Of a stretch of 64,000 nt of DNA, positions 5,526 to 24,970 are shown piece after piece. The stretch's first letter is position 1. Each line of letters begins with the position of its first letter. The translations under genes and the position numbers were made by a program. The notes below the pieces were generated by a model. The model was given only the letters and a program-made list of their open reading frames with translations, did not search any database and was not told where the DNA came from. Origin of the DNA: Eremomyces bilateralis CBS 781.70 (lineage: Eukaryota); NCBI GenBank assembly GCA_010015585.1, contig ML975151.1; one strand, given 5' to 3'.

Positions 5526-7037
5526 TGAACCATCCGTCCGGAATTGTCCCCGTCACAAATCGCTTGCGCGACAATGTCGTCTACCTTGTTGGGATATTGG
5601 GATCCTATGATCTGTCCTACAGCGCTATTGCCTTGAGGATCACGGACGTATATGGAAGAGCACGAGCATCCGGTAGCCAACACAATAGCGACACTCAACC
5701 GGGTCGCAATGCGATCGACAAGCGTAGTTCCTTGATCGATGCCTTGTGCGTTCGGGAATCGACCATGGTGTCGCAAACAAAAGCAAGATGAGATGGGATT
5801 CCTAAACCAGCAAATCGGCTGCCAGTGGCAGTTCGTGATAGCGGCATCTGAGCCCAGTATCCACTCGTGCTGACTCGCACTCCAATTCCCTTTTCCTAGA
5901 TGACGATCACCATCTGCGAATTGCGATTCTGCGTATCGCGCACCCCTTGGGGCTAGCCAACCTAAGAGCGCGGGGAACCGCTTCCGGCGAAGCCGCGAGG
6001 AATATGGCGCAACCGGGAAGCAAGTTCGTGGCGGGGGAGCCAATGGCGGTGGGGCGCGACGGTTTTGTTAGCATACGATGCTCTGGTGATTTGCGTTACC
6101 TTTTAAGGGATTGTTGATTGCTCGCATACGGGGATCCACTCTCTGTCGGCCCGTCGCGTGGTGCAGCGGATTGGTCTGCTTTTTACAGAGCTTGATGCCA
6201 GTTCGTGAGTTTGGAGGGTGCGTATCCTAGTCCATCGGATGTAGCCATACTGGTAACCTTCGTGCTGCGTCGTAAGGCTTCAGGCCGATCCACTTGCAAA
6301 GAGGCTCGGGGCTGTGCAGATACTTCGACATCGCCGCAGTTCTACATAGCACGGCCTTGTCGTGAGCCTTGTCGCGAGATATAAAAAGCCAGGTCAGTCA
6401 GTCCGTTCTTGTTCCATTTGCTACGATAATTCGTCGTACCTGGACGAACCCATTGCAAGCCGCTTCTAAGCTTCGAAGCACTGAATCGGTGTAAGCAGCC
6501 TTCCTTTTCCGTCCAACTCGACTCAGCCCTTTGGACTTAGCGTGTTTCATCCGCTCAAAGCGTATCCCCATAGGAGGACTCACCGAGATCTTTTTTTGAT
6601 CTTCCATTAATCTCCTTTGCAGCAAAACTTGACACTCAACAAATGTGAGCCGAGATGTTGGTGATGCAAGGGCAGCTTTCGTTGCTAACTTGGGGTGTCA
6701 AAGACGTGCGGCGATTGATACGCCGAGCCGTGAACTCCCCGTCATATATCCCAACTATTCAATAATTCAACGCATAACACGTAAGGGAGATTGTTCTATG
6801 CAGGGCGAACTGTATTGAACAACCGGACCAACGTGGAACTTAAACGGTATTCGCTCCATCATCGCCTTCAGTTCCGATTGCTCAAGGCAACCGACGACGA
6901 ATTCTGTCAATTCCACTCGTCAATGACGAAAGCCAGGCCGACCTATCAGATTCTACGACATCAACTGTTCCGTCCTGAATTACCTGGCAAAAATATCCAC
7001 CCTTCAAAGCCTTGATAGATGCCTACTGGCCATCCAA

Positions 7038-7634
7038 ATGTCCTCAAACTCGGCTTCCCAACGCCTGACGCTCTCTGCTCTGCCAACCGAGATGCACCTG
7101 GAGATTATATCCCATCTCTCGATCCCATCCCCTCAGCGGCTTCAACAAACCTCCCGCCACTTCTGTTCTCTCGTCAAGCGACCGACCTTGCGAACACTTC
7201 TTGAAGAGGAAAGCCTACCGTGGGCCCGCGAACAGCAGTACCTTACCTGTTCGGAATGCGTCAAGTTTCGCAAGCGATCCTCCTTCGCCGATGATATGAC
7301 GGTCGGGGAGTATTCACCCGGTTGTCTGAAGGCGTCGCAGCGCATGTGCATCTGGTGCGCTCTGCAAAATGACAAGTTCCCTCTCGGCACGCTGATGCGC
7401 GTGGGGGGGAGAACACATGTGGTGTGCTTGCAGTGCGGTCGATGTCGTTCGGAAATCGGCACAAAGGGCAGTCGAAGTTGTCGAGATTGCTGGGCACGGG
7501 AAGAGAAGGGAAGGATAGGGAAGCAGCAGAATTGGTGGAGTAGGCGCGGCGCTGGTAGGTACCCAGGAGATGGAGAAGTTGGAAGTGGATTTGAAGAAGA
7601 AGGAGTTTGGGATGTGTGTGATGAGTATGACTGA
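7038..7634 (+). CDS. F-box-like protein with Cys-rich C-terminus
   Basis: LSALPTEMHLEIISHL...LQQTSRHF is an F-box signature, followed by several CxxC pairs. Confidence 0.75.
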   Translation: MSSNSASQRLTLSALPTEMHLEIISHLSIPSPQRLQQTSRHFCSLVKRPTLRTLLEEESLPWAREQQYLTCSECVKFRKRSSFADDMTVGEYSPGCLKASQRMCIWCALQNDKFPLGTLMRVGGRTHVVCLQCGRCRSEIGTKGSRSCRDCWAREEKGRIGKQQNWWSRRGAGRYPGDGEVGSGFEEEGVWDVCDEYD

Positions 7635-10312: not shown

Positions 10313-12403
10313 CTAATATGCTCGCCCACCGTGACCCCTCCCAAACATCTCTTCCTCCGTCACCGCGCCCTCCCAGCTCTGCCTCCCGGCCCCCTCCTCC
10401 TGCTGCACCGGCTGTCCCGGCATCGGCGGCATCGGCAGCTGTGGCGACGGATAGTATCCCGTGCCCGTCCCGACGCCGCTGCTTACCGGCGTCCGATTCC
10501 CCAAGCTCGGACTCGGCTTCCCATAGCTCCCCGTTTCCTCGCTGATGAACCCGCGATCCGCCTCATCCAGATGCTCGCGGAATGACCCGCGATGGCTCGC
10601 CACGCTTTCGGGGCGCTGGGGGCTCAAGGGCGGGGGTATGAGTCCGGGCGCTCCGTAGTGAGGGTCGCGCGGATGAGGCGATGCGGGAGTCGTGGAGGCA
10701 TACGCGGGGCTGATAGCGGCGGCGGAGACGCTGATGTTACTGGTGTTGTCGGAGCGAATGGAACGGGGGGAGAGGAGGGAAGGGCCGGGGGATCCCTCGA
10801 TTTCGGATGGGGGGCCGTGTGGCTGGGTGAAGAAGCGAGGGTCGCCGGAGAGCTCGAAGACGGCGGGTCGGGACTCAAGTTCTTGCGAGGCGGGGGCATA
10901 GTGACCTTTATGGTCCTGTGAGGGGACGTAGTCGCCAAGTTCTTGTATGGAGGTGTCGTTGAGTTCGGTGGGATGGTCGAGAGGTGGTTTCTTATTGTCG
11001 GAGGCGGATAGGTCGAACGCAATGGGTTTGTCGTTGCCGTCCAGCTCGGGAGGAATCCGGCGGCGGGGTTTGCGGAAGCGGAAGAACCATATGGCAATGG
11101 CGCCAGCTAGGAGGAGCACGACGGCGCCAGCGACAATTCCGCCTATGGCACCGCCGGAGAGGTTAGTGGATGAGGGCGATTTAGAGTTGATGGGATTAAT
11201 GGTGACGATCTGAGCCGCGGATGTAGGGTCAAGGAACGTGGCCTGATTGACCGTGAAATTGGTTCGCTCGTGGTCAACGATGAGATATGCTTCTTGCAGG
11301 AATGTCCGGCCAAGGGTATACTGCGAATCGTTCGCAGCGCGACGGATCGGGAAGTAATTCGTCGGGTTCTTGTAATAAGGCCAACGGGCCTGGAGGTCGA
11401 AAGCCGCATAGGGGAGGACAATGTTGGTGCTGTTCCCATTGTCGTATGCAGTGTTTCCAAGTTTGAAGGTGATGGACGGCTTCAATTGCTGCATCTTCGA
11501 ACGCATGGTGTCATTAATTACGTAGAGCTCGGTCAGCTCGTCGTAAGTTAGGCCAAAAGCCTCTGCCATCAAGTCGCAAGCGTCTCGTGGCAACCATATA
11601 TCGGGTACGGTGCTGTCGATGACCGATAGATGTCCTTTAGGAGTGAAGGAGGCGACGCCAAGGAGTGTGTTCGATGCGATGATCGATTGTATGCCCACGG
11701 TCAATGCTCTTGAATCTTCTTCGGCGAAGCTGAAGGATAGCAATGAGGGATTGAAGCGGCTCGAGTCGTATCCTCCCAGAACTAGGTTTCCAAGTACTCG
11801 TTTCAGACGGTAAGGCGCTCCAGCAGTGTATCCATAGGAGAGAGAAGGGATCAAAGATTGGTTATACGCGTTGACGAGGAAGGAACTGAGGGTTGATGCC
11901 GATGAGGAGAAGCTGACCGGTCGGATTCCAAGCCCAAATATGCCCAGAAAATAATCTGTATCTGCGATACCGGCGACGATTTGTCTCCCTAAACCCAACG
12001 TGCCCGGATCCTGTGTCGAGCCCAAGGTGACGTTGTCGCTGCCGTAGTGTCCATGCCCTTCATACCCCAAACTTGCTTCCAAATCTAGAGTGTAGAGGCC
12101 GGTTTCCGTCCAGGTAGTACTTTCATTCCATAGAAAGCCTCGGCTCGATTGCCCGTTGAAAAGTTCGACACCGCGTTGTTGAGGACAGTCTTCCGGATCT
12201 CTCGAGGTGCACCCATCGGGCATTGGCACCCACGTTTCGGAGCCAGCCGTTGAAGGCAAGACACGGAAATTCTGGCCGGGTGTACCTATATGGATCCTAA
12301 AGGTTGACCAGCTTCCATCGTTTCCCTCCCATTCCTCCGAAGGACTGGCGACGTAAGGGGCAGGTGTGACGGTGTCGCGCCGTACGCGTCGCCGTTGGAA
12401 CAT
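10313..12403 (-). CDS. Pepsin-like (A1) aspartic-protease-fold membrane protein with degenerate active site
   Basis: GNDGSWSTF, IGTPGQNFRVLPST, LVLGGYD, IDST and LGRTFLQEAYL motifs; TM segment GAIGGIVAGAVVLLLAGAIAIWFF; long cytoplasmic tail. Confidence 0.9.
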   Translation of the reverse strand: MFQRRRVRRDTVTPAPYVASPSEEWEGNDGSWSTFRIHIGTPGQNFRVLPSTAGSETWVPMPDGCTSRDPEDCPQQRGVELFNGQSSRGFLWNESTTWTETGLYTLDLEASLGYEGHGHYGSDNVTLGSTQDPGTLGLGRQIVAGIADTDYFLGIFGLGIRPVSFSSSASTLSSFLVNAYNQSLIPSLSYGYTAGAPYRLKRVLGNLVLGGYDSSRFNPSLLSFSFAEEDSRALTVGIQSIIASNTLLGVASFTPKGHLSVIDSTVPDIWLPRDACDLMAEAFGLTYDELTELYVINDTMRSKMQQLKPSITFKLGNTAYDNGNSTNIVLPYAAFDLQARWPYYKNPTNYFPIRRAANDSQYTLGRTFLQEAYLIVDHERTNFTVNQATFLDPTSAAQIVTINPINSKSPSSTNLSGGAIGGIVAGAVVLLLAGAIAIWFFRFRKPRRRIPPELDGNDKPIAFDLSASDNKKPPLDHPTELNDTSIQELGDYVPSQDHKGHYAPASQELESRPAVFELSGDPRFFTQPHGPPSEIEGSPGPSLLSPRSIRSDNTSNISVSAAAISPAYASTTPASPHPRDPHYGAPGLIPPPLSPQRPESVASHRGSFREHLDEADRGFISEETGSYGKPSPSLGNRTPVSSGVGTGTGYYPSPQLPMPPMPGQPVQQEEGAGRQSWEGAVTEEEMFGRGHGGRAY

Positions 12404-13347
12404 GATTGCGAACCGATAGGTTGGAACCTAGAGTAAAATGTACCGTCGCTGGTCGGGAGCGAGGTCTATGAGATTGGTTGAGCTCGCAGGGGAAGAGTCG
12501 GGAAGCGGGTAGTCGCGTAGAGAGCGGAGGTCCAGATAATAGCGTGCTAGATGCTCGGAGACGATCCGATCACGGTGTCGACATGACGAAATGGAGTTCA
12601 ATGGTCCTTGAACCTTGGAGAGAAAGAAAAGAACGTTCTTTTCGCAGATATCAAGTGGTCAACGCCGTTGCACCGATTGTGCCCAAGACCAGTGCAAGAG
12701 ATAAACATGGTCCGTGTCAATAATATAGGACGTACGTAGTACGTCGTACTGTGTAGGTAGCTCCTAAGAAAACGGGTCGTCGCCCGTCAGATGCTCCGAT
12801 GAGCCCAGATCACAGGTAGGAGCAGGAGGGATATGTCGAACCAAGTGGGAGGGGGTCTAGGGGACGAGCGAAAGCCGGGAGAAGAGATTAGATTCTGGGA
12901 TTTGATTGGAAGGTGGAGGTTCAGCTGGAGCAAATCATGCAAATGCCAAAAAGGGCTGAACAGGTTGGAGGTGGTCATGATCGGCTTCATAGCGTAGTCG
13001 ATCTACCGCGGCGTCAGGCGTGAAACACCGAAGGGCTGAACTGGCGAAGTGAGCTGCGAGAAGCCTTTGGGCTGAAAGGGGGTGTTTACAGTGATGCTAA
13101 AGAATTTCCGATGTAATTAACGAAAACGCTCGGGTAGCATTAATAAGGTATTTTAATCATTTAATACCTACCGTAACTAGGTAATTGTCAAGGCAGAAAG
13201 CCGAGAAAATGGTCCTCGTCCATGGGACACGAATACTCCCCTGCTTCTCTGGACCTCCTGTTCTCTGTGATATGCAAAAATCACAACACGACTATTCGTG
13301 TCGTATTCGCTGAGCGATTAATGACTACGTGATAGACTACGTGACAT

Positions 13348-16300
13348 TTAAGAGACCCAAATCAGCACACCCACTCCAAGTCCGGATGAGCTCGCTGCTC
13401 GTTCCGCGCACACAAAACATGGTCCTCCTGTCCTCCGAATCACAGCATTTTTCCCCCTTTCCGAGCACCAAGCTCGAGCAAGCAGCTCGGCGCCGTTGCC
13501 GGTGGCATTGATGACCATAACATTCCTTTCTTCCGAGTCCTCCTCCGTATGGTCCTTGAGCCGTTCGACGGTCCAAATATTCTCATACCTGTACAATTCC
13601 CTCCGATGCACCTCGTGCGCACCCTTCGGCCCTCCATGGCAAGCCGGCACCGTGATAAATACCGGATTGGTGTATAGCCGGTAGGTAGTTAGCTCGTCAC
13701 TATCGTCCATCTTGAGCACAATCTGGGCGCGATACGCTGCCTGGCTATCAGAGTTCGGTTCGCTTGCTGATAGGTCCTTCTTCAGTTGGATGGCTTTCAA
13801 TTCACAAGTGCTGACTTGCCGCACCGGCGGTTCTGGGATGATCCAGTTTCTGGCATCTCGCATCTCAGCCGCCCATGGCCCAGGTTCTTCGCCCTCGCGG
13901 AGCTCTATATCTTTGTATGGATGGACTGAAGGAGCAATGTCGATGGGATCGCCGTCGTGCCAGGTTTTGTGCGGCAAAAGACTCAACTGCCGCGCCTTGA
14001 GGTGGACGTGACACGGCTGGTTTTCTGGAAGCGGTGGAATAATTTCGACAGGCGGGCAAGGACCGGTCCATCCGCAAAGCGAGATCACTCCTGGCAGGCA
14101 ACCGAGAACACGACCGAGAACCGTTCGGATACGCCAGTAGGACTTCTTCGGCAACGATAGTCCGCAATCGAACAATAGAGCGACACCCACAGATTCCTTA
14201 ATCGATGGTGTGCACAAAATCATAGCGCTCATGATTTTAAATGCACACCATTTGCCGGGGAGTGTCATGCCGTAGAGCCAGTCGTACAGATCGAGAGGAA
14301 TATTTTGCCCTCCCAGCATGGCGCCATACACATCTTCGGCGTAGTCTCGAACTTCATTCATATACGGCCACTTCATTTTGGCGGCAAATCGGAGGATTCC
14401 TTCCACCTGTTGCTCATGAACGCGTGAATACACCTTCACGGACTTCAAAATGATTTCAAAATCTCGATCGAGGTATGCCTTTCGAAGAACCTCTCGTTGA
14501 TCTTCGTCGGCTTTGTCAATAGCCTCAAGGCTTGCTTTTTCTTTCGCTTTCGCTTCGGCGAGACCTTTTCTCATTGCGTCGGTGGCATTGGTTCCCGCCA
14601 GACGCATTCCGGCCTCATACGCGCCAATTGCCGCTTTCAGAAGACCCAATTTGGCTGCCGCATGACCGAAGCGGGACCGTGCGTTGACGTATTTGGGGTC
14701 CAATTGCATCGCAATGGCCGCATCCTCCAGAGCTTTCTCGTGTCTTTCCATGGAGAGCTGCGCCGCTGATCTGTTGCTTCGATAGATGGCATTTCCCGGG
14801 TCGATCTTGATAGCTTCGGTGTAATTCTCGATGGCGTCGTCAAATTCTTTCCGTGCAAATGCTTCATTTCCCTTTTTCTTGAAAGCTTCCGCCTTTGCCT
14901 TCAACTCGGCCGTCTCTACCGCCTTGACCTCGGACAAGTCCAATTCCGGGTGAACCAGAATGATGGAAATATGATTGAGCCATAAATCCGCCACAATCAT
15001 CGATGCCAGAATTCTAGGGGTGAAGCCGGTCGAGTAGCTAGTCCTTTGACCATGCTCAAATCGTCTGGCGAGCTCTTTTGCAATGATGACCTGCCAGAGG
15101 AGGTTCCAGAGCTTATGTCCATCCCCAGGCGTGTGCCATTGGGATCCAATGCTAGAGGTCATTAAAAAGTTCGCGAAAATGTCAGTGCGGTTGAGTAGCT
15201 GAAACAGGTTCGAGAATTGGGTCCAATCGTCCACTGCATAAGCCGGGTTGATATATTTGATCCTACCGGGAGAATAGGTTAGCAAAAGATGTCCCTTTTC
15301 TCGTCATTGAGTAGACGTGTTAACTGTACCCCATATCGCCGGTGAAGTCTTTCAAGTCCACAGCATCCCTCTTAGGATTCCATCCGAACTGGGGTGGTCT
15401 GTTTTGCAGTTCGTCAATCCTCCGAAGCAGCGTTTTGGCCTTTATAGGGGGCATGTTTGAACGATTAACTAAGATTGTCTTCTTTAGAGGATGGTGCTCC
15501 TCTTCAAACTCCCAAGCCTCTAAACCAAACCCTTCAACGGTCACCGTGCCAGGATGGATACTCTCGTATTTGGGATAGCTTTCGATATTGAATAGGACTT
15601 GACTTTCCTCGGTGTCATCGTATTGGTAGTCTCTGAGTCCATCGATTTGACTCTTCAAAGGCTGGAACCGCTTCTTCTTGTACAATGCTTGCTTGGATCA
15701 GTATTCTGCGCCTTTCCGGTGACAGGATCATACTTACCAAACGATGCATGTGTTGTGGGAGGGTATGTGATGTCCCGATCCCACCAGCGATCCTCCTTTT
15801 TGCCACCCCAGTAGCAGTGGGTGGTGACCTTGGAGGTGTAGCTGTTTGCACCAAGGACCTGCAAACTCAAAGCCCCTGCGCGCTTCTTACCGCAGTAGAG
15901 GTCGATTTCGTTCAACTTCATCGCCAGTTCCGTTAGGGCTGGATCTTCTCCCTGAGTGGTTCTGCCATCGTCGCCATCGTCGACATCTTGGCGACTTTCA
16001 CGGTCTTCACCATCAGCGATAAGCGTTTGACTCGTCGTCCTATGGCCCGTTTGAAGCCCGGTCCCGGTGGTGCTCGCTGCACCAAGCATCCGCAGCCTCG
16101 CGCTCGCACAATCGGCTAGTTCTCTATACTCTTCTGCCGTCGCATCTTGAAGCAACCGAAGCTCCTCTACACTCGTGCTGCTCTTAACTTCAACTCTCAT
16201 TGCCTCTACAACCCGAGCCGTCGAGTCGGGGAACAAGTTCTCTAAACTGTCAATATGCCCTTGGATCTCCGTAATCATGGTCTGAAAATTCCGCTTGTTG

Positions 16301-16812
16301 TGAATTGCCCATCTTGTCTGCTTCTTTATGCTTGCGCCTCTCTGCGGATCACGCGCGCTACTCTGGAGACTCTCATAAGGCTTTTTGAAGATCGCCCTAA
16401 GTAGAAACTGCGCCTGTTCAACAGCAAGGCTGTCTTCTGCTTTTTTCATTGATGGCCGAAGCCCGAATGTGCTCTGCAGCCGCTCCGAGTCCTCAAATAC
16501 GTGCTGAATGCACGCGAGCAGCCGCATTACCGTATCCTTTGCATCTTTTCGCTCCAGGCGCGAATCCGGTTGAAGAACGTCGCCGTCGTTGTCGAGGCCG
16601 ATTGTGACGCCCCAACTAACTAGGCGAATTCGTTCGACTTCTAGCTTGACGCGAAGGAGCTCATATTCCATGCCATCATTCCGACCAGAATCGATCACTT
16701 CGAAAATCTGCACACATGTTTTCCAAAAAGTGACGACGCCGTGTACGACGTCAGCAGCGTCCGCCATCATTAAATTCAACCGACGTAGAACGGTAGAATG
16801 ATCAAAAGGCAT
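13348..16812 (-). CDS. HeLo domain + TPR + uncharacterised C-terminal domain protein, ~1100 aa, 3 exons (start 16812 or 16770; introns ~15737-15688 and ~15328-15263)
   Basis: HeLo-like N-terminus (VVTFWKTCVQIFEVI...LLRVKLEVERIRLVSWG; RWAIHNKRNFQTMITEIQGHIDSLENL), three TPRs (AEAFKKKGNEAF...YRSNRSAA), and C-terminal LARAWC...CFVC. Splicing joins the three ORFs in frame. Confidence 0.85.
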
Positions 16813-17244
16813 GAGAACCGTTGGGAGCCGCCAGTTTGTCAGAGAGATTGGATTTTCATGCGTTTCTCTCGACCTGTGACCGTGGGAGTTAGTGGTTCGC
16901 GCCTCAAGGGCTTAATATGCTGTGGTGTCTAAGTCTTGACTAGTCTCGTATCCAGAAGGCGAGATCCCATATTGTTAGTAATGACGCCCAGGCCGCCAGG
17001 CGGATGGTCGCGCGCGTGTAGTCCTGCCAGGCTGCTACAGATTTACGTACATAGTATGTATACCGGATAGTATACGGATAGGTAGAGGCACGTGGGTAAA
17101 GTACGACCTCAGCCTGGCTGGCCTGGCTTTACTGTACCTATCACCAGGCCACAAGGCCAACCCCACCACCATTATCAGATCCTCCTTCCCAATATTTTCA
17201 ATCCTAGTATTTCAAACCGAAGGCTGGATCAGTCGGCAAGGCAG

Positions 17245-18078
17245 GTGAGATTTGTCCACCGTGCTAGGAATTGGGGAAATTATTGGCTTAATTAAGCCTA
17301 GCGTATATGACCAATCTTCCCCTGAACAACTTTTCATGCCAGTTTATCACCAATCTTTCCCAAGGTCAACTTTAATTCTTAATTTACTCTCTCTCACAGA
17401 TCCAAACATGGAAGATATTGCTGCTCCTCCAGATTGTCTCTGCGCTTCCTACGATGAAGCCTACAATGCTCTCAAAACCTATGACATGCAGCATGGCTAC
17501 GTATCTAGCAGCCTCCCTCGTTAGAAGAGCTCTTAGCCGACATCGAGCGTCGACGCTTCAGTCCGTCCTATAGACTGCAGTAACATAGTCTCGGTGACCA
17601 ATTTTTTTTAGCGGAAGCAGGACAGGAAAACGATCCGACAGAACTGGTTGAAGCCCAGAATATGGCTCTGGCTATAAGAGGTGTGAATGCTTCCTGTACC
17701 CCAACAGTGGCGTAGAATTATCACTTTGGAGATATGGAAGCTTTCTACGATGAAAGATTTGTACAAGTCGATACTCGAAATGCTCTTCTTCAGTCTTAAG
17801 ATGTACGTTGAGAGAGTCCTAAGCGTGCTGCTGCAGAGGCGGCTTTAAATGCGTGGAAAGGACTCAGCCCGCGCAAGAGACAGCGACGTTAGTACTTAAT
17901 ATAATCTACCAATCTTAAGTACTTTAACGCATGAATATGACGAGACATCGGAATACGCTTTAGATTCTTCTCAGTCGAGGCCTCAGAGCCCTCAAAAGAG
18001 CTTAGTTATACATAAAATTAATACGTAAAATATTTCCATGCTAGTGATAATATGGCTAGCGTGGTGGACAAATCTCAC
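17245..18078 (+). mobile_element. Degenerate, internally deleted Mutator-like (MULE) DNA transposon relic
   Basis: Inverted repeat gtgagatttgtccaccgtgctag (17245-17267) pairs with ctagcgtggtggacaaatctcac (18056-18078), 21/23 match. Broken ORF MEDIAAPPDCLCASYDEAYNALKTYDMQHGY resembles fungal MULE N-termini, and a stop-riddled C-terminal remnant follows. Edges are AT/TA-rich. Confidence 0.6.
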
Positions 18079-18155
18079 TGGCCAGTCTGCAATAACTCTA
18101 GATGGGTGGGTGACTGGACGTAGAGTTCAAATCGTTACTACTTACTACAGGCACG

Positions 18156-18187
18156 TCTCCAGTGGCATCTCCAGTGGCATCTCCAGT
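18156..18187. repeat. 12-bp tandem repeat (tctccagtggca) x2.7
   Basis: Read directly: tctccagtggcatctccagtggcatctccagt. Confidence 0.8.
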
Positions 18188-19362
18188 TCACAAGATTACA
18201 GGATCATCCCGACATGCAGAGCCTATAACCCATCTTGTCGCAGACCAAGGTATCATCTATGGGAGCCTAAGGCTACAAACTGCATTAATAATCTTGCCAT
18301 GAGTCTCGTATATCTGCAGGACCAGGGCACCGGGCATTCACATAGAACACACAACTTACACAATAATACAACAACTTCGCTGCTGTAACAACAGCACCTA
18401 ACTCCCAACCATTTTAGCACATCACGTGCGACACATCTCAACGTTCGCATTCTTCATAGGTACAATACGTAGTACGTATTTTACGTGTAAGTAATGACTA
18501 AGTAATAAATTTGTATGGCAATTGGCAAATTTCCGGTATTTAATCAAATCCACACGTTTCCCGTCCCTTTCCCTCCGTCTAATACTTGCAGTGTGCAGCT
18601 GCAACTTTCGCCCAGCTCGACGCCATATACACTTGGCAATTGGCATTCCGCTCCAGTTATGGTTAATAATTCAGTTTGATTGCACACTTATACTCTCAAG
18701 TGCGTCTCAGCGACGCCCGAAATGCGTCTCTCCGTCAGCCTTTGTACGCCTTTTCCATACTCGCCTTCAGCCTTGGGGCTAAGCCAAAGCTGCCAGTTGA
18801 TCGACTGTTGATCGCTCATTGGTGAGATTGATCACCCATCGATCATCCATTGATGGCCTTGTTTGGTACATAGTTTCATCCTTCACTGCATCCATTCGCT
18901 GATATCCCGCCAGTAGCCAATGGCTTAATGATATATTCCCCCGTCCCTAACGTGTCGCGAATACCGCCGGGGTGACACTGGGCAGGTCTTCTACTATGGT
19001 ATCTTCATCGCTGGCATCATGGCATCATGGCATGGCCTAGGTGCCTAGTCAGGCCCTTCCACTTTCCTTTAGTATACTTAGTACTTCCTTGGTCGCTACT
19101 CGAGTTCCCTTTTCGGTTTTCAGCTTTCAACATGTTCTCTTCCTTTATCAATCATCCTTGGCCTGCGGTGGAGCCGGTGCATGTGTATGAGTTGGTCGCT
19201 CTAGTGACTGGCTCTGCGCTATATTACTCCTTTTAAGAATAGGTGACGCATGGTGGACATGTGGTGACCCGACCCGAACCACCTGAAAACCGTACTTTAA
19301 TATCGTCCTATCTTCTCTCTACTACTCTCATCTTCTTCCAACTATCGACAGAGATACGAGTA

Positions 19363-21531
19363 ATGGCGCAGAGAAGACGACTCCTGAGCGCACCCATGCT
19401 ATTGTGGGCTTCGTTGTCTGCTTTCCCCCTCACTCATGCTCAAGGTAAGTCACTTTTCACTCTCAAGACTCACACAAGCGGATAGAGTTAATGGCCAGGT
19501 GGTTGGAAAAGGTCTATGGCCCATGTGTGTCGTACGATCGGTTCCTTGAATCATGCAACCACAGTATTGTGTTGAAATGCCACAGCCCATTCTAACTTAC
19601 TCGCAGTATCCTGGTCAAATTTGACAATTTCCTCTTCGTCTTCACCAATAATTGCACTCAATTCTGGGTCGGGGTCGTCGTCCTCTTCATCTTCGTCGGG
19701 GTCGCCATCGCCTCCCACTATAACGCAACCTTCAACGAAGTTATCCAGCAATACGACATGCTCACAATGTGAGATCGCTGCCCTTTACAAGGAGATAAGG
19801 TATCCGGGGGGTGTGGACGAGGATGCTCCACGAAATGTGACACTCTCCGTTCAACCAAAAATTACCACCTTCTCAGATGGCTCGTCGGAGACCAACTTTG
19901 TCACGATCACCTATATTGGTCCGAACGAGACCCTCGGAGCGAATGAAACGATCACCCAGACATCCTTAACATGGACCCAGTCCGGTCTCGACACCATTTT
20001 CACGTACCCCACCGTGTACGTCGCCTTCAACAGTATCAAGGGGGCTTTCTCCAGCTTCAATCCCAACGCAACGGACGCCTCCACTTGCGTCTCAGTCGAA
20101 CCAACCAAGATTGCTCTCGCAGAGGCCGACTACAACCGCCTGGTGTATCCCTGGATCACCTCCGGTCCTGACGATATCTCCCCTCCTACGGATGCCGCTT
20201 CGTTGCGAGTGGAGGCGAGCGTCTTCTCCTACATAGACGCCCTCCCAACCGTCAAGGAGCAGCTGTCGCTCCCCCCGGATATTTGGCCGAGCGACTGTGC
20301 CAGTACCATCACTCATGGCCCCGCTCTCACTCATACTAAGATAATAACGCATCAAAGCGTGAACTTCCTAATGCAAACCGGTGCACCTGAGTTTGTTGAT
20401 GGTGGAAGCAAAGGCGGCGGCACGGGTGGCGATACTGGTACAGGTACCGGCGGAGGCTCGGGCAGCGATGGGGGAACTGGTGATGGGAGCAATGGCGGAT
20501 CCCCAGGCGACGGGAACAGTGGTGGTTCTGGCGGCAATGAGGACAATGGAGGGATCAACAATGGAGGCTCGACAGGCGGCGACGTAGGTGGAGCAATTGG
20601 CCAAATTCTTGGCCCGAACAGTGGCGAGGGGGGGTCGTCCGACGGTTCGTCTGGAGGTTCGTCTGGCGGTTCATCTAGCGGGTCTGGCTCAGGGGGTTCT
20701 CCTGGCGATAATGTTGGAGGCAGCATTGGCCAGCTGTTCGGACAGAACGACGGACCTGGTGGGAGCGGAAGCGGCAGCGGAAGCTCCTCAGGGGGAAGCG
20801 CTGGCTCCGGCTCCGGCTCCGGCTCCGGGTCGGGATCGGAATCAGGCACTGGATCAGGATCAGGATCAGGTGCTGGATCCGGCTCTCTCCCTGTTGGCGG
20901 AACCCCCGTCCCATTTTCAGTCGGTCCAGGCGGCACAGTGGTTGTCAATGGGGAGACCGTTACCCCCGGCCAAGTCGCCACGATCAACGGTGTCCCCGTA
21001 TCCGTTCCCACAGGCGCCTCTGGCGCTGGACCCGGCTCCGATGGTGCCGGTGGCGTGTTGGTCGTCGGCGGATCGACCATCACCCTCCCCGCCGGGCCAG
21101 CGGGCACCCAGGGTTCTCGTCCCGGTGTGCAAGGTCCCGAGTCGGGACAGCCTGGAGCTGCTGCGAGTGGACCGATCATTGGATCTCAGACGCTTTCGGT
21201 GTCGGGTGGGCATTTGCTGATCGGAGGGACGACACTGACGTCTGGGGTTACCGTCATTGCCGGTACAACCGTATCTGTTGGATCTGAAGGGACAGTGGTG
21301 GTAGGTGGAAGCACGACTGTCCTGCTTGGCGTAACGACCATCGGCGTGGGTGACTTGATCGCGAGTGGTTTTGGAGAGACGATAGGGCCTTCTACCTCCG
21401 CAGATGCAACTGGATCTGGTGTTCGCCCGCCACCTTCGAGTGGAGCCGGTAGGGAGAAGGAGAACAGTGCTTGGACGATTAGCATAGGGGTTATGGGTGC
21501 TCTTGGTTTGGCTGTTGTCGGTGCAATGTAG
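19363..21531 (+). CDS. Secreted Gly/Ser/Thr-rich, probably GPI-anchored cell-surface protein, 2 exons
   Basis: Signal peptide exon MAQRRRLLSAPMLLWASLSAFPLTHAQ, intron ~19445-19606, Cys-containing domain, GS repeats, VVxGxTxxxG beta-repeats, and hydrophobic C-terminal GPI-like signal. Confidence 0.85.
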
Positions 21532-22495: not shown

Positions 22496-23500
22496 TCAAT
22501 ATTTGGCCCTATTGAAGCCTGGCCGTCCCCGATTTGGCTTCTGTCGCTGCCAATTCGGCCTTGGCCGCTCCATACGCTGAATATGCTCCAACTCCGCTTC
22601 TTCGGCGGCGCGGTTTGCTTTCTCCTCCTCTTTCCTCCTGCGTTTTGCCTCCGCTTTCTTCTTTCTTTCAATATCCTCCGCGGTTATCCCCGACTCCTTC
22701 GCCGGACCTGCTTCACTTTCTTTCTCAAGCTTATGGCCCTCAAAGAAGAGAGTTGCTGTTTCATCCTGAAGACCAGGTTTTTTTACATCCATAGGTTTGG
22801 ATTCTGCTGAGCCAGGGACTTCGGATAGGATGGACTTGAGGCGGTCGACGATCTCCACCCTTCTGTCGAGCGAAGGCTGCTGTGCGCGGCGCCGATTTGT
22901 ACGTCTCCTCTGAATTATTACCTCTACTTTCCTGCCCTCCTCAAGGAACTCTTGAAGCTTCTTGCATCGGTGATCGAGATCCGATTCCGAGATCTGCCAT
23001 GAGATTTCGAGGGTCTTTGAAGACAAGAGTGTCCGCTTTGAAGCCTTCTGCTTCATCTCCTTGTCGCGAAGCCTCTCCAATAGTTCCTGTGCCGTCACGA
23101 CTTTGACCAAAGGCAGGCTCAGCCCATCCTCGCCCGGGTCTCCTGAGGACGCGCCGCGTAATTGAATGACATGTTCGGTGGTCCGGTCGATACTGCGGAG
23201 GAGACTTGAAAGGGAATGTGCTTGAGGATCTACCCGACCCTCGGTGTTGATAAGGTGCACACGAAGGGTGGCAATGGCTTCATCGAGGATGTAGCCTTCG
23301 GCGAGATGCGGGAGAGCAGTCGAGGACCGAGGGGTGGAGGCCGTTGCATAACGGTATAAAGGGATTCGCTGGTGGACTCGGGGTGGATGTATGCTCAATT
23401 GAGGGCAGACTGTAGAACTCCTCAGGGTAACCAGGTCCAATGACTGGATGCAACGGCGGCAGGCTGAGAATGAAAGGGCTCCAGCCCAAGGTGATGCCAT
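22496..23500 (-). CDS. Mitochondrial translation initiation factor IF-3-like protein
   Basis: Mitochondrial-type presequence, LDEAI..VHLINTEG (IF3-N), and KTLEISWQISESDLDHRCKKLQEFLEEGRKVEVII (IF3-C). Confidence 0.85.
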   Translation of the reverse strand: MASPWAGALSFSACRRCIQSLDLVTLRSSTVCPQLSIHPPRVHQRIPLYRYATASTPRSSTALPHLAEGYILDEAIATLRVHLINTEGRVDPQAHSLSSLLRSIDRTTEHVIQLRGASSGDPGEDGLSLPLVKVVTAQELLERLRDKEMKQKASKRTLLSSKTLEISWQISESDLDHRCKKLQEFLEEGRKVEVIIQRRRTNRRRAQQPSLDRRVEIVDRLKSILSEVPGSAESKPMDVKKPGLQDETATLFFEGHKLEKESEAGPAKESGITAEDIERKKKAEAKRRRKEEEKANRAAEEAELEHIQRMERPRPNWQRQKPNRGRPGFNRAKY

Positions 23501-24970
23501 GATGAATATAAAAGTCCCAACCGTAGTGCAAGGAGGATTAACAGGGACGAACGATTTCAGTTGATTTCATAGCCACATGCCATGTACACGAACAAAATCA
23601 CGATCGACTTGTTGTAATTTCAAAGAATTGGGAATTGGGAATGAAATTCAATTGGATCTAAGACATTCCGTACGGTAAGGCTAAAGGCGCCTATGCTCCG
23701 TGGAGGAGAGCAATCTTTGTATGACCGCCGTTCCCACTTCCCAGTGCTTGCAGGGTCACGTGCAGCACAGCTGATCAACATCTCCATCTTCTCAAGAGTT
23801 CAAGTAATAACAACAATACTCCGTAGTTAGTTAACAATAACTGACTAACTTAACTTAATTGTTTTTATAGATATAGTGCCGGCAGACAGTCATGGTGATG
23901 GCGTCTCCAAAGAGGACTGACCCTGATAACAAGACTTCATCGCTCGTTCAGGCTAACATTGATCTGGAGATCGTCGTCGTGCATTCAAGCAAAAATGGAC
24001 ACGGCGTATTTTCTTTGGGATACGAACCGTGAGGTGAGACATTTCAATCTTCTTTTCCAGAACAGTCAGTCCCACAATTCAAAGTTTATCATGATGGCTA
24101 GGGAGAGTGCGATTCCGATATCACCAGCTTGCTCGATGCTGATCCTGATGGCATTCCGCTTTTCGATGGCAGCCATTATTACCTGCCTCACTGCATGACA
24201 GTCGGCCAACCTCCCAACCTCTCCAGCTGCCATGGGAAAGCCATGATTCCGACTGAAGGATGATGATCATCCTCAATCAACAATGGCGTACGCTCGTTTG
24301 AGGTGCATGCAGGTATTTGGACTTCAATCACACCGCGTCGAATCACAAAACAAGGGAGCTCAAGAGCGTTTCTGGCTAGGTCTCCCCTTCTTTCGCCTGT
24401 CCACATTTGAGCAGCATGACATTTGAATTCATTATGAAAACCTAAACTTGGACAATTTGACTTCCGCTGGAATAAATTGCCATTGGTTGTAGCTGACGCA
24501 GCTGCACAGTCTACGCTCCGGGCATGCAGCCGCGTATGCGAGCTACAAGATCTCGACATGATGGCGGGAACCTGCTGCATGCTGAGGAATGCCGCCAGTT
24601 CGGTACTGAATCTGCCCGTTGACCTTTAAATTATCTAGACGTCTGTCATGTAGCACAGATTTCGAAGACAGGAGCCATTGAAATATCTTGCTCCCTCCTT
24701 CGCTCCCCGTCCTGTTTAGACGGCTTTACTATTCTCTTTCACCTAACATCAACCATTTCGTCATTCTCGCAAATACACGACTTCTTGAAGTTGTTGACCA
24801 ACGTATGACACGGAAAACTGCTCGTGTCATCAGACCAAACTTCCATTGTTTCTAAAGAGCGAATCTTCCATCAGCTCCTCTTTGTTCGCAAAACACCAAG
24901 TGGTTCTTCTTCAATAGGAATTTTCATTCCTCTTTCTAGTCACCGTTGAGAAACTCCCTTCACTGTCAAG

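Follow-up and report, generated by a model that had tools for sequence, protein, structure and literature searches.

A HeLo-domain protein of Eremomyces bilateralis with an SGT/Hop-type TPR unit and a conserved C-terminal domain of predicted fold: a candidate cell-death effector without a NOD

The minus strand of the stretch analysed here (the window; 64,000 nucleotides of contig ML975151.1 from Eremomyces bilateralis CBS 781.70) carries a gene for a protein of 1115 aa in which a HeLo domain is followed by a linker, a conserved central region (Cen), three TPRs and a C-terminal domain of ~360 aa, here called X. The original prediction had proposed this order, with an unknown domain in the place of Cen, for a single chain of ~1100 aa spliced in frame from three ORFs. 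Three such minus-strand ORFs are present (15655..16911, 15320..15697 and 13348..15303), the joined CDS amounts to 3348 nt over exactly the predicted span (13348..16812), and its translation matches letter for letter the hypothetical protein P152DRAFT_479755 of E. bilateralis (P0004 hereafter); Pfam matches and a single spliced contig bear out the domain order. Exon 1 (15738..16812, annotated ATG at 16812-16810) is separated by intron 1 (15688..15737; 50 nt, GTAAGT..AAG) from exon 2 (15330..15687), which encodes the N-terminal half of Cen, and intron 2 (15263..15329; 67 nt, GTACAG..(tgctaac)..TAG) precedes exon 3 (13348..15262), which encodes the C-terminal half of Cen, the TPRs and X and ends with the stop codon TAA at 13350-13348.

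Sequencing run X1 yielded a single contig of 3630 nt, at a depth of 32.8, that crosses all three exons and lacks both introns. It aligns in three pieces (13312-15261, 15329-15687 and 15738-17000), whose joints skip 50 nt and 67 nt with ends reading CT..AC on the plus strand, i.e. GT..AG on the minus strand, the 67-nt joint being cut at +1. The absence of introns suggests that the contig derives from cDNA, X1 being labelled only ‘RNA?’ and none of the runs listed for the gene being recorded as RNA. The transcribed region (13312..17000, minus strand) ends 36 nt beyond the stop codon and begins ~57 nt beyond 17000. Rather than the separate transcripts that would have spoken against the predicted protein, one contig thus spans all exons with both introns removed, and the gene is real and expressed as a single spliced mRNA covering all domains. 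An in-frame second ATG lies at 16770-16768 (MMADAAD..), the annotated start adding 14 residues to it. As 29 of 31 HeLo homologues begin at the position of this second ATG, it is the likelier start in use.

The HeLo domain (16150..16743, minus strand; residues 24-221) was confirmed by a match to PF14479 with an E-value of 1.2e-47 and 162.8 bits (gathering cutoff 23.2) over profile positions 7-205 of 205; the full protein gives the same match, the scores of the two scans lying at 160-163 bits. If the second ATG is used, a hydrophobic first helix (M-x-x-x-A-G, a hydrophobic run, then W) lies at the extreme N-terminus. HeLo is described as a pore-forming death domain in the accessible parts of PMC12881547 and PMC10197012, and membrane permeabilisation and cytotoxicity may be expected of the HeLo domain of P0004. 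The predicted lack of a P-loop, NACHT or NB-ARC also stood: no Walker A motif (G.{4}GK[ST] or [AG].{4}GK[ST]) occurs in all 1115 aa, and neither NACHT nor NB-ARC is matched in Pfam at E<=1 on the exons or at E<=1e-3 on the full protein. Pfam likewise returned no amyloid or HET-s motif on any exon at E<=1 and no Pkinase or PK_Tyr_Ser-Thr match, and no kinase appeared in the fold searches.

HeLo is followed by an acidic, Gly/Thr-rich linker (15811..16107, minus strand; residues 236-334). The linker and the link between the TPRs and X are the two least conserved stretches of the protein, with mean pairwise identities of 31% and 32%, respectively. Cen (14920..15810, minus strand, a span that takes in both introns; residues 335-592) has no Pfam model, and an ESM Atlas look-up gave no usable match for it. 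In relatives that lack the TPRs, the C-terminal half of Cen directly abuts X.

The three predicted TPRs are borne out by Pfam matches to TPR_1, TPR_11 and TPR_2 (residues 124-194 of exon 3) and by similarity to solved clamp TPRs. Together with a capping helix they form a unit of the Hop/SGT2/PP5 class (14551..14913, minus strand; residues 595-715), which matches PDB sequences of Hop (5.1e-32), Sgt2 (1.4e-25), SGT (6.1e-25) and PP5 (2.8e-16), with TOM70 also falling within 1e-16 to 1e-32; with yeast Sgt2 the alignment, capping helix included, extends over 125 residues, and the unit also aligns with TPR1 of Hop. The clamp residues of Hop are, in the numbering we assume, K8, N12, N43, K73 and R77. 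The corresponding positions of P0004 are K606, N610, N641, N671 and R675, so that four of the five carboxylate-clamp residues are kept and an Asn stands where Hop has Lys73. Across 57 aligned family members the consensus residues K, N, N, K and R occur in 39, 38, 35, 35 and 35 rows, respectively. Some homologues have been automatically named ‘small glutamine-rich TPR protein 2’; the dimerisation and Gln-rich domains of SGT are absent from the Pfam matches of P0004, and other SGT/Hop domains were not detected. The TPR unit is missing from a HeLo-Cen-X subclass (12 proteins by local HMMs, and the loci L014, L036, L037, L042 and L043) and lies N-terminally in another subclass of eight proteins, which makes it accessory rather than core; since a whole subclass lacks it, it cannot be the essential switch. 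The three repeats belong to the Hop/SGT co-chaperone class rather than forming an NLR-type sensor array, and they are optional in the family.

X (13351..14439, minus strand; residues 753-1115) combines a helical bundle with a beta-rich part and, at its C-terminus, an alpha/beta part. It ends LARAWC..CFVC, as had been read from the sequence for a C-terminal domain of ~350 aa. Its fold is predicted with a pLDDT of 89-92, and the predicted model closes with a Rossmann-like beta-alpha-beta unit of ~90 residues. A Cys/His cluster (13408..13641, minus strand) comprises the invariant C1019 and H1027 and, each present in at least 90% of 112 aligned rows, W1076-C1077 (‘ARAWC’) and C1093-x2-C1096; E1070 is conserved to the same degree. 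We presume this cluster to be a zinc site, and X to be a new and probably zinc-binding fold. Pfam gave no match in the C-terminal 400 aa at E<=1, the TPR was the sole match of the protein to PDB sequence profiles, and the ESM Atlas look-up of X was without usable match. The structure search proposed with the original prediction returned no PDB neighbour for X: with a 402-aa model the best Foldseek E-value against the PDB was 0.15 and the best Z-score of a wide VIA-align search 3.4, with a 278-aa model of the beta and alpha/beta parts the best values were 0.055 and 3.8, and in both cases none of 48161 chains reached Z>=5. The queries were these two models as wholes rather than the helical bundle (residues 41-118 of the 402-aa model) or Cen singly, and coverage of the N-terminal ~110 residues was minimal with the 278-aa model. 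The weak matches are generic Rossmann-like pieces, namely TPP enzymes, RecA-like lobe 2 and the SRP GTPase. PADLOC matched neither X nor the full protein, and among GTDB contigs 47 pattern matches gave no confirmed prokaryotic relative of X.

For the C-terminal part of X, a CDA-fold deaminase was considered and dropped. The motif of that fold is [H/C]-A-E followed by P-C-x-x-C ~25 residues on. X reads G-A-E..(21)..P-C-F-V-C, with Gly at the first ligand position and a Glu that is shifted or lost in some members, the invariant Cys being that of ‘ARAWC’; no deaminase is found among the listed matches of the X searches (best Z 3.8).

A search with the 402-aa C-terminal piece retrieved 439 clusters at E<=1e-3, in which X is almost always C-terminal, and the Cen-X family spans Dikarya and Mucoromycota. 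The domains of P0004 show mean pairwise identities of 43-59%, with the helical part of X at 59%, its alpha/beta part at 55% and HeLo at 45%. Sensor repeats of NLRs are fast-evolving. X, as the best conserved part rather than a variable one, is unlike them, and in this respect the original interpretation was not supported. In metagenome DNA, 17 of the 19 loci with at least 1.5 kb upstream of Cen have a same-strand HeLo ORF ~1 kb upstream, and all 10 database proteins matched by the HeLo domain of P0004 belong to the Cen-X family, which indicates that HeLo and Cen-X travel together. Two members (L020 and P0145) join Cen-TPR-X to a C-terminal HET domain without an upstream HeLo, so the part outside HeLo behaves like a module that can be reused. 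Tandem copies occur in L042 and L043; in the X tree the class labels are polyphyletic, and the family tree departs from taxonomy. Pfam scans of 20 and 45 relatives and local HMMs had pointed to a ‘minimal’ Cen-X protein of 450 aa and to numerous forms without HeLo. Both were largely rejected as artefacts of gene calls that introns had split in two or more pieces. HeLo-less proteins of 820-940 aa are also annotated at NCBI. Many metagenome ‘TPR repeat proteins’ are truncated calls of the HeLo-Cen-TPR-X gene. LopB of Leptosphaeria maculans is found neither among the 10 HeLo-matched proteins nor among the best 120 homologues listed, and the accessible part of PMC1325252 does not give its architecture. 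Our literature search found no paper on a HeLo-TPR or similar architecture and no functional report for any Cen-X family member; the accessible portions of PMC12881547, PMC9815663, PMC10197012, PMC1325252 and PMC8778642 do not mention HeLo-TPR-X.

The genes next to P0004 encode an aspartyl protease, an F-box protein and a mitochondrial IF3-like protein and look like housekeeping genes. An accessory defence location, as originally envisaged, finds no backing here: the neighbours are not defence genes, the supposed AT-rich patch has a GC content of 0.41-0.47 (17200-18700) against about 0.52 within the gene, and the supposed MULE relic gave no Pfam match even at E<=10. No NACHT or NB-ARC was found among the seven ORFs of the window that were scanned, and the sole NACHT among 43 flank ORFs of related loci (L045) is a match of merely 25 residues.

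Based on these findings, we propose a hypothetical mechanism in which P0004 is self-contained and has no NOD, its HeLo being an autoinhibited executioner under the control of Cen-TPR-X, a reading to which we give roughly even chances: (i) the N-terminal HeLo, whose hydrophobic first helix opens the protein, would be the membrane-permeabilising executioner; (ii) the flexible linker would tether it to the conserved regulatory module Cen-TPR-X, which most likely keeps HeLo inactive; (iii) X and/or the SGT/Hop-type TPR clamp would register a conserved intracellular signal, for instance that an acidic C-terminal ligand of the Hsp70/Hsp90 type has been lost or altered, upon which HeLo would be released or oligomerise. 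X may in this way replace the NOD as switch or sensor. The strong HeLo match with its aligned N-terminus, the single transcript, the lack of a NOD, the coupling of HeLo to Cen-X, the HET swap, the tandem copies, the polyphyletic classes and the TPR clamp argue for such an executioner, whereas the even and fairly high conservation (43-59% pairwise) with no hypervariable sensor, the housekeeping-like neighbours, the Asn at the Hop Lys73 position and the TPR-less subclass argue against it. The gene model, the single spliced mRNA, the domain identities, the lack of a NOD, the coupling of Cen-X to HeLo across the family and the HET-bearing variant were observed, whereas a death or immune role, zinc binding, autoinhibition and oligomerisation of HeLo and the kind of signal are inferred.

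The conservation of X would also fit an enzyme. X could be a zinc-dependent enzyme or a metal/redox catalytic domain and the business end of the protein, with HeLo recruiting it to the membrane or gating it in a conserved physiological role other than death or immunity. The mean pairwise identities of 59% and 55% for its helical and alpha/beta parts, the invariant C1019 and H1027, the conservation of E1070, W1076-C1077, C1093 and C1096, the modelled Rossmann-like unit in the last ~90 residues and the expression of the gene (depth 32.8) among ordinary genes are all consistent with this explanation, and the Cys/His cluster with Glu1070 would be as much at home in an enzyme as in a sensor. However, neither Pfam, PDB sequences, Foldseek (best E 0.055-0.15) nor VIA-align (best Z 3.4-3.8) points to an enzyme family, HeLo is documented as a pore-forming death domain in the parts of PMC12881547 and PMC10197012 cited above, and the near-obligate coupling to HeLo, together with the HET domain joined to it in one lineage, points to the logic of a cell-death effector; we regard the enzymatic explanation as unlikely.

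The kinship of the TPR unit to that of Sgt2 (E 1.4e-25 over 125 residues) and to TPR1 of Hop, the clamp residues kept in most family members and the automatic naming of some homologues would instead suit a co-chaperone or proteostasis factor, in which the SGT2-like TPR recruits Hsp70/Hsp90, Cen-X takes charge of a client or of a membrane process and HeLo serves as a regulated membrane anchor. Such a role is quite improbable, as the TPR is absent or N-terminal in subclasses and hence accessory, the SGT dimerisation and Gln-rich domains are absent from the Pfam matches, and P0004 has the Asn in place of Lys73. Amyloid templating, through which a separate NLR switches on a downstream effector of the HET-S type in trans, is the best-studied mode of HeLo activation in the accessible parts of PMC12881547 and PMC9815663. 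For P0004 it is very improbable: a large globular module (pLDDT 89-92) rather than a short prion tail lies C-terminal of HeLo, Pfam detects no amyloid or HET-s motif at E<=1, and the only NACHT in the ORFs scanned, seven in the window and 43 in related flanks, is the 25-residue match in L045.

Returning to the autoinhibited executioner, a bolder version of it, which we put forward tentatively and consider rather doubtful as a whole, is that Cen-X, with or without the SGT-type TPR, might be an unrecognised NOD-free switch for interchangeable death effectors (N-terminal HeLo or C-terminal HET) that is old (Dikarya and Mucoromycota), in which X would be a new zinc-binding fold reading a conserved danger signal from within the cell and the TPR would link the receptor directly to Hsp70/Hsp90. 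If true, Cen-TPR-X would be the fungal equivalent, within one chain, of the way in which plant NLRs depend on SGT1-HSP90.

In fungi, plants and animals, necroptosis-like death is carried out by bundles of the HeLo, HELL and MLKL type. To our knowledge, the switch that turns such bundles on in fungi is established for NLR/amyloid pairs alone, with kinase fusions as a suspected second case. A large, conserved and expressed family that links HeLo to another module, Cen-X, which is also found with HET and with a chaperone-type TPR clamp, may control cell death without an NLR switch, and HeLo-Cen-TPR-X offers a concrete third mode of death-effector control that can be tested. X, a domain without a Pfam model, with a confidently predicted fold and no structural relative found, merits a family model of its own and an experimental structure.

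Among known systems, HET-S and HELLP of Podospora anserina share with P0004 the N-terminal HeLo (PF14479) with a hydrophobic first helix and a C-terminal regulatory part. In HET-S, however, this part is an amyloid prion-forming tail of ~70 aa triggered by an adjacent NLR, whereas P0004 has a globular module of ~880 aa and no NLR neighbour was found. The fungal all-in-one NLRs (HeLo-NACHT/NB-ARC followed by TPR, ANK or WD40) likewise have an N-terminal HeLo with TPRs downstream, exchangeable effectors (HeLo or HET), a patchy spread and tandem copies; P0004 differs from them in having neither NOD nor P-loop, three clamp-class TPRs in place of a long variable array and a highly conserved C-terminal domain. 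With SGT2/SGTA, Hop/STI1 and PP5 it shares the three-TPR unit with its capping helix (E-values of 1e-16 to 1e-32) and the clamp residues K, N, N and R, but its TPR lies inside a HeLo protein, flanked by Cen and X, and carries Asn at the Lys73 position of Hop. MLKL and the fungal and plant MLKL-like proteins (4HB/HELL plus pseudokinase) follow the same logic of one chain without a NOD, in which a helical-bundle executioner is joined by a linker to a big regulatory domain; their regulatory domain has a kinase fold, and the module of P0004 does not. By analogy, the logic of P0004 resembles that of MLKL, a four-helix bundle with a regulatory pseudokinase, more than that of an NLR.

The gene under study encodes P0004, listed in the database as hypothetical protein P152DRAFT_479755 of Eremomyces bilateralis CBS 781.70, in which a HeLo domain, a linker of ~100 aa, a central region (Cen, residues 335–592), three TPR motifs with a capping helix (assigned from Pfam and solved relatives) and a C-terminal region X (about residues 753–1115) follow one another. 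The HeLo domain anticipated by the original prediction is matched over nearly its full length (PF14479, E 1.2e-47, 162.8 bits in Pfam). Cen has no match in Pfam or in the ESM Atlas and X none in Pfam at E ≤ 1, and neither a Walker A pattern nor a Pfam match to a NACHT, NB-ARC or kinase domain was found anywhere in P0004, in agreement with the predicted lack of a P-loop switch.

Reading the DNA directly gave a minus-strand CDS of 3348 nt (16812..15738, 15687..15330 and 15262..13348), whose spliced translation is identical to the 1115-aa database protein; the three ORFs originally proposed at 13348–16812 thus correspond exactly to the P0004 CDS. They are separated on the minus strand by introns of 50 nt (15688–15737, GTAAGT..AAG) and 67 nt (15263–15329, GTACAG.., a branch-like tgctaac, ..TAG). 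In the public sequencing run X1 (labelled 'RNA?'), 92% of the sampled words were found, and over 13200–17000 it yielded a single contig of 3630 nt (depth 32.8) that spans 13312–15261, 15329–15687 and 15738–17000+, skipping both introns and nothing else, with CT..AC ends on the plus strand. The three ORFs therefore belong to a single spliced mRNA, so that the refutation by separate transcripts named beforehand does not apply, with the reservation that X1 may itself underlie the public annotation, in which case contig and annotation are not independent. The 5′ end of the transcript extends at least to about 17057. The annotated start (ATG at 16812) adds 14 residues (MPFDHSTVLRRLNL) without counterpart in homologues, and a second in-frame ATG (16770, MMADAAD..; both ATGs lie within 16768–16812) is the start position in 29 of 31 HeLo-bearing homologues. 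The choice of start codon matters because the HeLo mechanism, according to passages of two publications (PMC10197012, PMC12881547), requires the first helix at the very N-terminus. Given the start position in homologues, the extension is probably not translated; otherwise it would bury this helix.

A search with X among 1.84 billion cluster representatives retrieved 439 proteins (E ≤ 1e-3), of which 265 reached ≤ 1e-10 and 141 reached ≤ 1e-30, with X almost always at the C-terminus. Named members belong to Dothideomycetes, Sordariomycetes, Eurotiomycetes, Orbiliomycetes and Agaricomycetes and to the Mucoromycota Calcarisporiella and Bifiguratus, and no prokaryotic relative was confirmed among the GTDB contigs searched. 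Pfam assigned HeLo to 13 and HET to one of 45 diverse X matches, the others having TPR only or no match. When 255 of the retrieved proteins were scanned with local HMMs, the result was a set of architecture counts that are misleading owing to split gene calls: Cen-TPR-X (101), Cen-X (53), X only (42), HeLo-Cen-TPR-X (29), HeLo-Cen-X (12), TPR-X (10) and TPR-Cen-X with N-terminal TPR (8). Of 45 metagenome loci examined by six-frame ORFs, 19 have at least 1.5 kb of upstream sequence, and all of these but L020 and L023 (17/19) carry a same-strand HeLo ORF ~1 kb upstream of Cen; among 17 loci with less upstream sequence, 6 show an incomplete HeLo where the contig ends. Gene calls that were cut at introns therefore account for most 'HeLo-less' database entries; such truncated calls of intron-containing HeLo genes include many metagenome 'tetratricopeptide (TPR) repeat protein' entries (620–790 aa) and many 'Cen-X' proteins of ~450 aa. 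All ten proteins retrieved with the P0004 HeLo as query belong to the same family. Judged by these sequence comparisons, the constant core of the family is Cen-X, its usual partner is HeLo and the TPR is optional, Cen directly adjoining X in TPR-less members (e.g. loci L014, L036 and L043) and the TPR lying N-terminally in 8 proteins.

AlphaFold2 modelled the last 402 aa with a pLDDT of 88.9 and a pTM of 0.83 (58-row alignment), predicting a helical bundle together with a beta-rich part and, at the C-terminus, a beta-alpha-beta part, and the last 278 aa alone with 92.4 and 0.90 (112 rows). No credible PDB neighbour was found for the 402-aa model (Foldseek best E 0.15, VIA-align best Z 3.4) or the 278-aa model (0.055 and 3.8); none of 48161 representative chains reached Z ≥ 5 with either, and both best Z values lie below those typical even for unmatched models. 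By these searches X is an unmodelled domain without structural relative, a statement covering the predicted models as wholes, the first ~110 residues of the shorter one being barely probed. All 112 sequences compared have C1019 and H1027, and E1070, the Trp-Cys of 'ARAWC' (1076–1077) and the C1093-x2-C1096 pair are conserved in at least 90%; this Cys/His cluster is a probable zinc site. A resemblance to the deaminase signature (GAE-x21-PCxxC) was discarded because Gly occupies the first ligand position, the Glu varies among members and the fold matches listed include no deaminase.

Variation around the core was observed in several loci. In L020 (8668–13256), where no HeLo lies in the 8.6 kb upstream, the Cen-TPR-X frame does not stop at the usual C-terminus but extends into an ORF carrying a HET domain (PF06985, 2.4e-30), and the database protein P0145 (1364 aa) has the same order (X 271–639, HET 889–1045). 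L023 (2563–7370) carries Cen-TPR-X without HeLo upstream; the 675-aa ORF directly upstream, without Pfam match, may represent another N-terminal domain used as an alternative. Two complete head-to-tail tandem copies of TPR-less HeLo-Cen-X genes lie in L043 (6306–12493), the end of one such copy precedes another, head-to-tail, in L042 (3–4094), and two Serendipita sp. 396 entries have adjacent locus tags. Isolated fragments matching just the first ~90 X residues (59–61% identity) in L032 (3236–3637), L033 (3100–3504) and L035 (8175–8576) look like relics of partial copies; that of L033 diverges, then stops, with no Cen, TPR or remaining X nearby, and in L035 a HET ORF lies about 4 kb upstream. 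An X tree of 34 named proteins (35 chosen, one dropped for short X; P0068, P0085, P0105, P0106, P0108 and P0112 left out beforehand) placed Sordariomycetes, Eurotiomycetes and Agaricomycetes each in at least two places by its starred branches, joined Serendipita with two Mucoromycota (support 100/100) and put P0004 in a 98/99 clade mixing Dothideomycetes with some Eurotiomycetes and Sordariomycetes, a pattern in keeping with old paralogy or gene transfer rather than with a simple orthologue in single copy. Pairwise identity in 19 full-length members averaged 45% in HeLo, 31% in the poorly conserved linker, 43–44% in Cen, 47% in the TPR and 59%, 47% and 55% in the helical, beta and alpha/beta parts of X; no domain was hypervariable.

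The accessory defence location expected for the gene is not supported. Its neighbours are a minus-strand 704-aa aspartyl protease ORF downstream (10313–12427, PF00026 1.9e-20; the domain is followed by a hydrophobic segment and a long tail rich in Pro and Ser), an F-box protein (6927–7634) and a mitochondrial IF3-like protein (22496–23566). The supposed AT-rich patch is a mildly AT-richer flank (17200–18700, a stretch of ~1.5 kb upstream of the gene, GC 0.41–0.47) with short ORFs only and no Pfam match, and the MULE relic is not supported either: no transposase signal was detected even at E ≤ 10. A 651-aa open frame at 19576–21531 (plus strand), without Pfam match, lies where GC content is high (0.61 at 20001–21000) and where several long overlapping frames occur on both strands.

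We propose, as the best-supported reading and with roughly even confidence, that the Cen-(TPR)-X module controls HeLo: it would restrain HeLo until a conserved signal acting on X and/or the TPR clamp ends the restraint, whereupon the freed first helix would attack a membrane. The HeLo identity, the near-obligate coupling of HeLo with Cen-X, the HET variant, the tandem copies and the non-taxonomic tree support it; the even and high conservation, the enzyme-like invariant cluster, the ordinary neighbours and the optional TPR weaken it. That X is instead an enzyme with HeLo as its membrane-targeting part is the main rival, a tentative one to which the invariant cluster also speaks. The closest natural solved relatives of the TPR are Hop/STI1 (5.1e-32), yeast Sgt2 (1.4e-25), SGT, RPAP3, TOM70 and PP5, all of them Hsp70/Hsp90 EEVD-clamp TPRs. 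Of the carboxylate-clamp positions (K8, N12, N43, K73 and R77 in Hop), P0004 retains four in alignment with Hop, as K606, N610, N641 and R675, with Asn671 at the Lys73 position; 39 (K), 38 (N), 35 (N), 35 (K) and 35 (R) of 57 aligned members retain them. A co-chaperone role, to which these clamp residues would be suited, is improbable in a family with an optional TPR, and activation of this NOD-less protein in trans by an NLR appears very unlikely.

The portions consulted of two reviews (2025 and 2023) and of an NLR survey from 2022 make no mention of a HeLo-TPR-X architecture, literature phrase searches were without result, and the public annotation describes solely a hypothetical HeLo-domain protein; we therefore rate P0004 as a new HeLo arrangement carrying the unmodelled X. 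The same portions place HeLo with amyloid tails and NLRs, and HELL with kinase or pseudokinase domains. The restraint proposed for P0004 would resemble the control logic of MLKL, from which it differs in operating without a kinase.
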